This document shows positions 2,439 through 3,165 of a DNA stretch of 10,764 nt, piece by piece. The stretch is from a virus (lineage: Duplodnaviria; Heunggongvirae; Uroviricota; Caudoviricetes). The notes beneath the pieces are model-generated. The model did not search any database. It saw nothing but the letters and a program-made list of their open reading frames with translations, and was not told the origin of the DNA. The DNA lies in the IMG/VR virus record IMGVR_UViG_2541047501_000021, positions 1-10,764 of that record; one strand, 5' to 3'. The position numbers and the translations under genes are program-made. The first letter of the stretch is position 1. Each line of letters opens with the position of its first letter.

Positions 2439-2516
2439 GGCTACCTCATCTGGTGCCGAACCTTCCTCCGGATATAATCTGTGGTTCCCAATCGACAGAA
2501 CCAGAGGAGGTTCGAC

Positions 2517-2972
2517 ATGTATTTTTTGAAAAGCCTTTATCAGGCTCATGTATTAAATGTTGCAGCAACAAACCGCTGGTGTAACAGCCCCGAAATGCTC
2601 CCGGATTACAGAGCCTGGCTGCGCGCCGAAACATACCTTCGTCTCGACATATTGATTAGCGAACTTCAAAAAGAGACTGCATCCATTCATAACCTTCAGG
2701 GTATCGACGCTGTTCGCATTCTGGTATCGCGCCATAGTGCTCTCTCAATAATTGAAGTGCGTCATCTCTCTTTTTCTGAACTGATTTTCTTGCTTCAACC
2801 AGCTCTGGAATCAGCGAATATCCCGCCGGAAGTGATCCAATACCCACCTCATGTTGACGAGCAGTTACAAGATGTGCCATACAACCAGCGTGCTGGATTG
2901 ACTCCCTGCTCAGAGGCTGAATGGGATCACTCTCTGCTGAAGAAATACCAAGATTTGTATAATCCTCAATAA
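2517..2972 (+). CDS. Alternative antisense ORF (151 aa); mutually exclusive with the 2656-3165 minus-strand call
   Basis: ATG at 2517 preceded by a perfect GAGGAGG (2504-2510, 6-nt spacer) and a consensus TATAAT at 2474-2479. Codon first-position composition is less gene-like than the minus-strand ORF. Confidence 0.25.
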   Translation: MYFLKSLYQAHVLNVAATNRWCNSPEMLPDYRAWLRAETYLRLDILISELQKETASIHNLQGIDAVRILVSRHSALSIIEVRHLSFSELIFLLQPALESANIPPEVIQYPPHVDEQLQDVPYNQRAGLTPCSEAEWDHSLLKKYQDLYNPQ

Positions 2973-3165
2973 GCCCGGCACACGCTTCTGCATCAGCCAG
3001 CTTTATTCTGGTTTCCTTGCGCTGTTCTCTGGCTGACAAACGCCAGAGCAGCGCATTAGCTTTATGTATCAACCACTCTGCCAGCTCCACATCAGATAAA
3101 CCGCCACGCCAGATGTGCGGACTGTTTTCGTAAACGCTCAGTGTCAATTTTTTGTCATTACTCAT
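2656..3165 (-). CDS. Hypothetical prophage protein (169 aa) between the YdaT-like and O-like genes
   Basis: Same strand and operon direction as neighbours; ATG at 3165 sits 14 nt after the YdaT-like stop; G-rich codon first positions. Its Shine-Dalgarno is weak, and it overlaps antisense with the plus-strand ORF 2517-2972, which has better expression signals, so the strand assignment is unsure. Confidence 0.4.
   Translation of the reverse strand: MSNDKKLTLSVYENSPHIWRGGLSDVELAEWLIHKANALLWRLSAREQRKETRIKLADAEACAGLIEDYTNLGISSAESDPIQPLSRESIQHAGCMAHLVTARQHEVGIGSLPAGYSLIPELVEARKSVQKKRDDALQLLREHYGAIPECEQRRYPEGYEWMQSLFEVR

Follow-up and report, generated by a model that had tools for sequence, protein, structure and literature searches.

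The locus

The DNA analysed here, referred to as the window, is a stretch of 10,764 nucleotides (positions 1 to 10,764 of IMG/VR virus record IMGVR_UViG_2541047501_000021). It is prophage CP-933M of Escherichia coli O157:H7, with 100% identity to EDL933 and also to more than 400 further complete genomes. The cryptic lambdoid prophage carrying a paaR-paaA-parE homologue is CP-933M (PMC8630535), and the PaaA2 and ParE domains detected in the window match this assignment. Between a YdaT/CII-like gene and an O-like replication gene lie two open reading frames (ORFs) on opposite strands, which converge tail to tail and which, we propose, are both genes. They encode proteins of 151 and 169 amino acids (aa):

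2517..2972, plus strand: plus gene, 151 aa, ECs1072 family phage-associated protein, WP_000273724.1 (RefSeq and NCBIfam NF033230)
2656..3165, minus strand: minus gene (orf169), 169 aa, third gene of the early (PR-type) operon (phrog_8304; absent from the RefSeq annotation)
2656..2972, both strands: dual-coding overlap, 317 bp, about 105 codons of each gene

Each ORF belongs to a described family. NCBIfam NF033230 matches the plus ORF with 105.7 bits (curated cutoff, 70; E = 2e-30) over profile positions 3-141 of 142. The minus ORF runs from an ATG at 3165 to a stop codon at 2658-2656, and residues 1-169 match positions 1-169 of the phrog_8304 profile with E = 4e-120. The profile searches proposed in a first-pass annotation of the window thus gave one family for each conceptual protein, and neither protein is found in Pfam or PADLOC. 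RefSeq, using the PGAP pipeline, annotates only the plus ORF and PHROGs holds a family only for the minus ORF. Every genome therefore loses one gene, and the annotation gap is systematic, as pipelines report only one member of the pair.

Selection on the two reading frames

Protein-guided codon alignments of 11 lineages were used to compare the two frames; position counts were taken from independent pairs and means from all pairs. Position 1 of a plus codon is position 1 of a minus codon, plus position 2 is minus position 3, and plus position 3 is minus position 2. Given this frame relation, the fastest-varying position tells which frame is constrained. The differences at positions 1/2/3 were as follows:

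Segment A, plus only (plus codons 1-46), plus frame: 52/30/86, p = 7e-7 versus uniform; all-pairs mean 0.30/0.21/0.53
Segment B, overlap, plus frame: 126/126/130, p = 0.96 versus uniform; all-pairs mean 0.37/0.38/0.43
Segment C, minus only (minus codons 1-64), minus frame: 36/29/65, p = 2e-4 versus uniform; all-pairs mean 0.28/0.18/0.47

Both private segments show the periodicity of the gene to which they belong. Their dN/dS values (NG86) were 0.08-0.4 in A and 0.04-0.3 in C, with 0.04-0.12 for the minus gene in close pairs. A search for an alternative ORF on the opposite strand of A or C returned no plus-strand ORF of at least 40 aa across 2973-3114, and the minus-strand ORFs over A are in the wrong phase.

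These results bear on two simpler accounts of the locus. According to the first, which is the RefSeq/PGAP view, only the plus gene is functional, and its codon content keeps the minus ORF open as a shadow. RefSeq does annotate the plus ORF alone, but such a shadow would not be expected to have 64 private codons with minus-frame periodicity and low dN/dS, in a region that no plus-strand ORF can account for. According to the second, which follows PHROGs and the operon context, only the minus gene is functional, and the plus ORF is a fortuitous antisense frame preceded by chance look-alikes of a Shine-Dalgarno (SD) sequence and a -10 element. The minus ORF is indeed on the strand of the operon, its start codon 13 nt past the stop codon of the ydaT-like gene (3179-3181), and is covered by phrog_8304 from end to end; the periodicity of the 46 private plus codons nevertheless speaks against this account, to which we return below.

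In the overlap, no position behaves as a wobble position. This flatness does not reflect neutrality: divergence in segment B (382/927) is slower than at the wobble positions of A and C (151/255; p = 4e-7), so that B is constrained. Synonymous differences in distant pairs, 0.6-1.0 in A and C, are roughly halved to 0.3-0.5 in B, whichever frame is used. An OLGenie-style count over three independent close pairs gave dNN = 0.073, dSN = 0.148 and dNS = 0.149, that is, an omega of 0.50 in the plus frame (p = 0.006) and of 0.49 in the minus frame (dNN/dNS; p = 0.004). Along the overlap there is a gradient, from plus-type variation toward the 5' side of the plus gene (near 2658-2726) through a flat middle part to minus-type variation toward the 5' side of the minus gene (2907-2966). 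In loci L006 and L007 (L numbers denote the loci compared), which have lost the minus gene, plus-frame periodicity is back in the former overlap (0.50/0.40/0.68).

The first-pass annotation had called the coding strand ambiguous, and had named purifying selection and translation in one frame only as the outcome that would refute an embedded antisense gene. By periodicity, dN/dS and omega, both frames are under purifying selection. The either/or framing was thus mistaken, and the locus is better described as a convergent overlapping pair in which both strands code.

A third account grants that both ORFs are translated and holds that only the N-terminal third of the minus protein matters, the C-terminal two thirds encoded in the overlap being a tolerated passenger whose sequence the plus gene dictates. 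This description fits the fast evolution and slight plus-type periodicity of the final 23 minus codons (2658-2726), a C-terminus that varies in sequence as well as in length and is modelled with low pLDDT, and the plainly plus-periodic overlap of a related 97-aa family (see below). However, plus-synonymous sites are constrained over most of the overlap, variation near 2907-2966 is of the minus type, and minus residues 66-90 (YTNLGISSxExDPIxPLSxEAI) are highly conserved. Together with the minus-frame omega and a minus frame that is open against the odds, these observations make a passenger tail improbable.

The odds of an open frame were calculated as exact probabilities, by dynamic programming over synonymous codons with local codon usage. 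Given the plus protein, a minus frame free of stop codons over about 102 codons has p = 0.003 in the window and 0.0002-0.29 in other lineages (0.0002-0.04 in most). Given the minus protein, an open plus frame has p = 0.04 in the window and 0.005-0.09 per lineage. Most lineages from Escherichia, Salmonella and Serratia keep both frames open. A minus ORF that is only the shadow of the plus gene would have to meet the first set of odds by chance, and would leave both the suppression of plus-synonymous sites in the overlap and the minus-frame omega there without explanation; we regard it as unlikely.

Transcription of the plus gene

The expression signals upstream of the plus gene, including its transcription start site (TSS) and 5' untranslated region (UTR), are:

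2450..2478, plus strand: promoter, with a -35-like CTGGTG at 2450-2455, a 17-bp spacer and a -10 TATAAT at 2473-2478
2486, plus strand of the window (NZ_CP008957.1 1257177(-)): TSS of the plus gene (Cappable-seq)
2487..2516, plus strand: 5' UTR of about 31 nt, with the SD sequence GAGGAGG (2504-2510), then TTCGAC (6 nt) and the ATG at 2517
2455..2516: imperfect inverted repeat, GCCGAACCTTCCTCC (2455-2469) versus GAGGAGGTTCGAC (2504-2516), enclosing the -10 element and the TSS

A Cappable-seq atlas of EDL933 (PMC10469882, Tables S6/S7) places the main TSS of EDL933_RS32100, which is the plus ORF, at 1257177(-), and records it in six of eight uninduced conditions with a mean RRS of 19-52. This start follows TATAAT by 8 nt and precedes the ATG by 31 nt. 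In these uninduced cells the atlas also records a strong cI-like start (RRS 360-650) and a weak cro-like PR start (0-22) (PMC10469882), which fits a repressed early operon. Transcription of the minus strand is predicted from its position in the operon. The atlas lists further plus-strand starts at window positions 2353 (antisense within the O-like gene), 2890 and 2971 (inside and at the end of the plus ORF); the start at 2890 is present in all eight conditions with an RRS of up to 69 (PMC10469882). These could be processing sites or extra antisense promoters.

The first-pass annotation had already pointed out GAGGAGG-N6-ATG before the plus ORF, and this motif is present as described. The 217-bp gap reported before the O-like gene also holds, from the minus stop at 2656 to the RefSeq O-like start at 2438; it contains the plus promoter, the SD sequence and the first 46 plus codons, and the plus promoter sits within the 5' UTR of the O-like gene. 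TATAAT was correctly recognised, but its distance from the ATG is 38 nt rather than 37 nt. A scan for strict consensus promoters called no canonical -35/-10 pair for the plus gene, because the -35 element is weak. Within the spacer is a box, GGTGCCGAACCTTCC (2452-2466), that is conserved, and CAGAACCnAGGAGGTTCGAC-ATG hardly varies even between loci with protein identities of only 28-55%. Neither the SD-ATG 15-mer nor the upstream box recurs in the window; each has a single occurrence, compared with 0.02-0.04 expected. GAACC and GGTTC in the 5' UTR can form a small hairpin that, in the predicted fold, presents the SD sequence.

These data all but dispose of the account in which only the minus gene is functional. 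The missing canonical -35 element and the missing terminator are in its favour; against it stand an experimental TSS 31 nt upstream of the plus ATG and an SD sequence and leader that are nearly invariant. A fortuitous frame would also be unlikely to stay at 151-159 aa down to 28% identity, to encode a protein with a confident predicted fold, and to outlive the minus gene in L006 and L007. We judge this account very unlikely.

The inverted repeat makes the promoter spacer complementary to the SD region, with a stem of 12-15 bp that includes a G.U pair on the minus-strand RNA. The predicted hairpin has a free energy of -31.8 kcal/mol (z = -4.0) on the minus-strand RNA and of -26.3 kcal/mol (z = -2.8) on the plus strand. 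No covariation supports the repeat, as the variant loci (L006, L043 and L049) show non-compensatory changes. We considered an SD-sequestering, riboswitch-like leader and rejected it: with the mapped TSS inside the loop, the main plus mRNA lacks the upstream arm, and the variants are non-compensatory. Rfam at E <= 1 found no family in 2400-3200.

Distribution of the pair and features of the proteins

Homologues of the same length as each protein are 74-88% identical in E. coli and about 50% identical in Salmonella. The pair can be followed down to 28-39% identity for the plus protein and 31-34% for the minus protein, including Serratia. Homologous loci are found in E. coli lambdoid prophages, in Salmonella elements with Int, Cox, Ash and RecE neighbours, in a Serratia fonticola prophage and in several metagenomic contigs. 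In every context examined (E. coli, Salmonella and Serratia) the minus gene is co-oriented with the early operon and the plus gene opposes it. The minus gene comes after ydaT in E. coli, after cro in Serratia and S. salamae (L155), and after cox and one further gene in the P2-like switch loci of Salmonella. The position of the plus gene differs among prophages. In Serratia, a gene caller called both overlapping genes. A longest-ORF heuristic for the orientation of flanking genes was discarded, as it picks shadow ORFs.

The plus ORF is intact in all 11 alignment lineages and in every further complete locus examined, and its length (151-159 aa) is held down to 28% identity. The minus ORF is intact in most loci; the exceptions are L004/5 (shortened to 148 aa), L042 and L043/44 (frameshifted) and L006/7, where it is absent and the plus gene persists. 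P0024, a close relative of L042, carries an intact minus form of 192 aa. The frameshifts are located at about 3556-3571 in L042 and about 3490-3502 in L043 (likewise in L044), and the downstream frame is still free of stop codons through the overlap. Recent pseudogenisation could be the cause in these Salmonella and metagenomic lineages; programmed frameshifting within an A-rich stretch is a less likely one.

This record of an ever-intact plus gene and a less regular minus gene is what a functional plus gene with a mere shadow opposite would produce, and the predicted structures point the same way, being confident for the plus protein and not for the minus protein. The AlphaFold2 model of the plus protein has a pLDDT of 89.5 and a pTM of 0.86 from only eight sequences, and is compact and all-helical, including the part encoded by the overlap. 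On the other hand, the non-overlapped part of the minus gene encodes an N-terminal motif, KxTLxV..SPHIWxGGL...LAxWL, of which SPHIWxGGL...LAxWL is invariant down to 31% identity. A good SD sequence (AGGAGGATAT or similar) also precedes the minus ATG in most other lineages. Neither would be expected of a shadow ORF.

The first-pass annotation had suggested that the antisense-embedded gene could act as a regulator or a superinfection-exclusion factor. Searches of Pfam, PADLOC, PDB and BFVD with both proteins gave no match indicating function and no meaningful structural neighbour; neither protein matches a defence or toxin-antitoxin model in PADLOC or Pfam, and family searches in NCBIfam, Pfam and PADLOC yielded nothing past the family names. 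An exhaustive HMM search of 1.84 billion representatives found only 23 plus-family clusters, and a protein-pattern scan of genome contigs gave no confirmed relative. ECs1072 is among the growth-phase-regulated genes of an older array study. We found no paper analysing the ECs1072/orf169 pair; in a bulk BLASTp table (10.1101/2020.11.18.388249, Table S12), one line lists the embedded part of the minus ORF only.

Interpretation

Taken together, we put the probability at about 0.78 that the plus and minus ORFs are both real protein-coding genes, forming a convergent antisense pair that shares 317 bp. Dual coding itself we consider well supported. Several observations weigh against this conclusion. 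Relatedness among the compared sequences makes the counts less than fully independent, and alignment is imperfect at 45-55% identity. Upstream of the minus ATG in the window there is only GGGTAATAAAT, which bears out the weak ribosome-binding site that the first-pass annotation had ascribed to this otherwise operon-compatible ORF. With a C-terminal part of variable length (148-197 aa), frameshifts in two lineages and its absence from one, the minus gene is the more dispensable partner. AlphaFold2 gave only a moderate model of the minus protein, with long helices (pLDDT 66.7, pTM 0.44). No terminator-like site was found after the plus ORF on the plus strand of 2973-3340. The Ribo-seq supplements that we searched have no entry for either ORF, and so provide no direct evidence of translation. 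Finally, the two transcription units would collide, and their expression should then be mutually exclusive, but this is inferred from geometry only.

The arrangement suggests how the pair might work. The minus gene is a member of the early lytic operon ydaS(cro-like)-ydaT(cII-like)-orf169-O-like-dnaC-like and, as such, is expected to be made only after induction. The plus gene is an antisense-embedded accessory gene with its own sigma-70 promoter and a consensus SD sequence, transcribed in the uninduced lysogen, where its mRNA would be antisense to the 3' half of orf169. After induction, strong read-through from PR over the plus promoter, together with RNA duplexes, may switch the plus gene off while orf169 is made. 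Such a toggle, which would be a protein-coding counterpart of pO/oop versus cII in lambda, is plausible, with roughly even chances. That the pair consists of a lysogen-state accessory or exclusion protein and an early lytic factor is a guess, which we offer with low confidence.

In phage lambda, the convergent promoter pO lies between a cII-type region and an O-type gene and produces OOP, an antisense RNA against cII. The CP-933M plus promoter occupies the same map position of the lambdoid early-right operon, and its transcript is likewise antisense to the 3' end of an early-operon gene. However, OOP is a 77-nt non-coding RNA with a terminator and an overlap of about 50 nt, whereas the plus transcript encodes a conserved 151-aa protein, overlaps by 317 nt and has no recognisable terminator. 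It also opposes orf169 and not the cII-like gene. The plus transcript is thus not a short non-coding RNA ending at a terminator, and it has no Rfam match.

Prophage morons, a concept of Hendrix and Juhala, are extra genes situated between other genes, with their own promoter and terminator, that are expressed from the prophage. The plus gene resembles them in having its own lysogen-active promoter (TATAAT, and the TSS seen in uninduced cells), antisense to the surrounding operon, in its varying position among prophages, and in sharing its leader with a BssS-family gene. Unlike a moron, it overlaps a conserved partner by 105 codons and travels with this partner, and no intrinsic terminator is seen. 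Convergent promoters also underlie the transcriptional interference switches of coliphage 186 (pR/pL) and lambda (PR/PRE), in which the regulatory overlap is short. The face-to-face arrangement of lytic and lysogenic transcription units is similar, but in CP-933M the interval between the promoters includes 317 bp of dual coding sequence, and interference would follow from the layout.

Antisense overlapping genes (OLGs) have been described in E. coli O157:H7 and Pseudomonas: ano, asa, three OLGs in EDL933, and olg1/olg2 (PMC5960689, PMC6294744, PMC9927249, PMC8850804). There, too, each strand of one locus encodes a protein, and pipelines retain only one of the two. Most of the published OLGs are short or of recent evolutionary origin, lie inside an older mother gene and have expression data as their main support (PMC5960689, PMC6294744, PMC9927249, PMC8850804). 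The CP-933M pair differs from them in being arranged tail to tail with a partial overlap, in having unique segments under purifying selection and in being conserved across genera to about 30% identity. Long antisense overlaps between bacterial protein-coding genes are contested, most cases resting on the expression of young ORFs. ECs1072/orf169 offers clean, symmetric evolutionary evidence with private segments as internal controls and conservation across genera, in a heavily studied pathogen, and could serve as a reference case for methods of overlapping-gene detection. A lysogen-transcribed gene that runs head-on into an early lytic operon at the position of lambda oop, and that comes with a portable cassette, also leads to testable predictions on lysis-lysogeny control or exclusion in Shiga-toxin-era prophages.

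A portable leader cassette

Over the 70-90 bp preceding the plus ATG there is almost no variation, even between loci with proteins less than 50% identical. The leader sequence reads (T/C)TGGTGCCGAACCT(T)CC...TAnnCT...CAGAACCnA(A/G)GGAGGTTCGAC-ATG, and the cassette GGTGCCGAAC...TAnnCT...GGAGGTTCGAC-ATG is found at 2446-2516 of the window, at 627-721 of L007 and in L051-L153. The leader was located in 98 IMG/VR contigs by a pattern search with exact arms, and species representatives of Xenorhabdus, Izhakiella, Salmonella and Klebsiella carry it too. Of 48 unique leaders, 47 have a TAnnnT hexamer 11-13 nt past the box.

Genes of at least five protein families have the leader upstream: ECs1072, a 97-99-aa family (L052, L056, L071, L090 and L117), a 151-157-aa family (L073, L102, L109, L116, L124 and L006 4554-5187), a 68-83-aa family and the BssS family. 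The 97-aa and 151-157-aa families have conserved convergent antisense partners of 92-117 aa and 125-141 aa, respectively, with overlaps of 200-270 nt; L149 3649-4024 is a further locus of this kind. A similar MSEK(I/V)T(L/I) or G(G/N)L(S/T)xxELxxWL motif opens the partners of both families. In these two families the RefSeq annotation is confined to the leader-driven gene. The annotation of E. coli SE11 includes the 97-aa gene, antisense between a cro-like gene and rha, but not its partner. We make no claim of homology between the ECs1072 and 151-157-aa families or between their partners, as the profile-profile hits are weak (6% and 41%).

The overlap of the 151-157-aa family is flat and evolves more slowly than the unique part. 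That of the 97-aa family has plain plus-frame periodicity, and the partner's own frame is visible only in its 21-codon unique part. The chance of an open partner frame is only 0.04-0.35 per lineage. Because of this periodicity and these odds, a dual-coding layout general to the leader-driven families is suggestive and not established.

It is a tentative and rather doubtful extension of these findings that temperate phages of Enterobacterales carry a modular, allelically diverse X/Y locus, in which an early-operon gene X lies tail to tail with a lysogen-expressed antisense gene Y, the two forming a state-specific toggle or an exclusion/self-immunity pair. X would usually be placed just after cro/cII and Y would be driven by the near-invariant promoter/5' UTR cassette, a layout that at least three family pairs appear to share. 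Y may then act in the lysogen; lytic growth of the phage itself would instead involve X and the antisense silencing of Y. Allele swapping might also use the conserved leader as a recombination boundary.

The early operon and the remainder of the window

The neighbours of the pair in the early operon are:

3860-3588, minus strand: ydaS/cro-like gene, early operon
3179..3604, minus strand: YdaT/CII-like gene, directly upstream of the minus gene (PF06254, phrog_163, RefSeq)
1347..2438, minus strand: O-like/DnaD-like replication gene, downstream of the minus gene (phrog_1701; RefSeq start 2438)
1340-594, minus strand: DnaC-like ATPase

The first-pass annotation had placed an antisense-embedded gene within a replication module. 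The gene is real by our reading and has its own expression signals, but for the module, which comprises the cro-like, cII-like, orf169, O-like and DnaC-like genes, early operon is a better description than replication module alone. An in-frame extension of the O-like ORF to an ATG at 2549 would lengthen it to 400 aa and cross the leader of the plus gene (2439-2549, minus strand). This extended N-terminus is not conserved and is interrupted by stop codons in L002 and L047; the RefSeq start at 2438 is therefore likely.

A perfect YdaT operator palindrome, TTGATTTTCATGAATCAA, is located at 3594-3611, across the ydaT start codon and the end of ydaS, and matches the OM site described for CP-933P (PMC9986795). 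A second YdaT operator at 2652-2669 was considered and rejected, as it has two mismatches and the count is within chance expectation. At 3969-4876, a cI-like helix-turn-helix repressor is followed by a PaaA2-family antitoxin and then a ParE toxin; this is the CP-933M paralogue of the three-component paaR2-paaA2-parE2 system.

A recurring conserved stretch, which would read VVAGxSLxRMVNLTTRC if translated, is present at 6388-6522 of the window (minus strand), at about 4534-4728 of L003/L004 and at 3536-3769 of L042. In Salmonella loci it is situated just upstream of the start of the minus gene. This stretch, in which there is a GGTTGTCA/TGACAACC inverted repeat, probably represents a non-coding element. 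On the plus strand, 6580-6798 has a sub-threshold match to the small RNA STnc100 in Rfam (29.5 bits versus a gathering score of 47, E = 0.003). Prophage decay and cargo are apparent at 7232-10748, with a RecE (Exonuc_VIII) fragment at 7232-8476, a truncated integrase at 8458-9009, and two NleG type III effector genes on the minus strand at 9591-10232 and 10314-10748.

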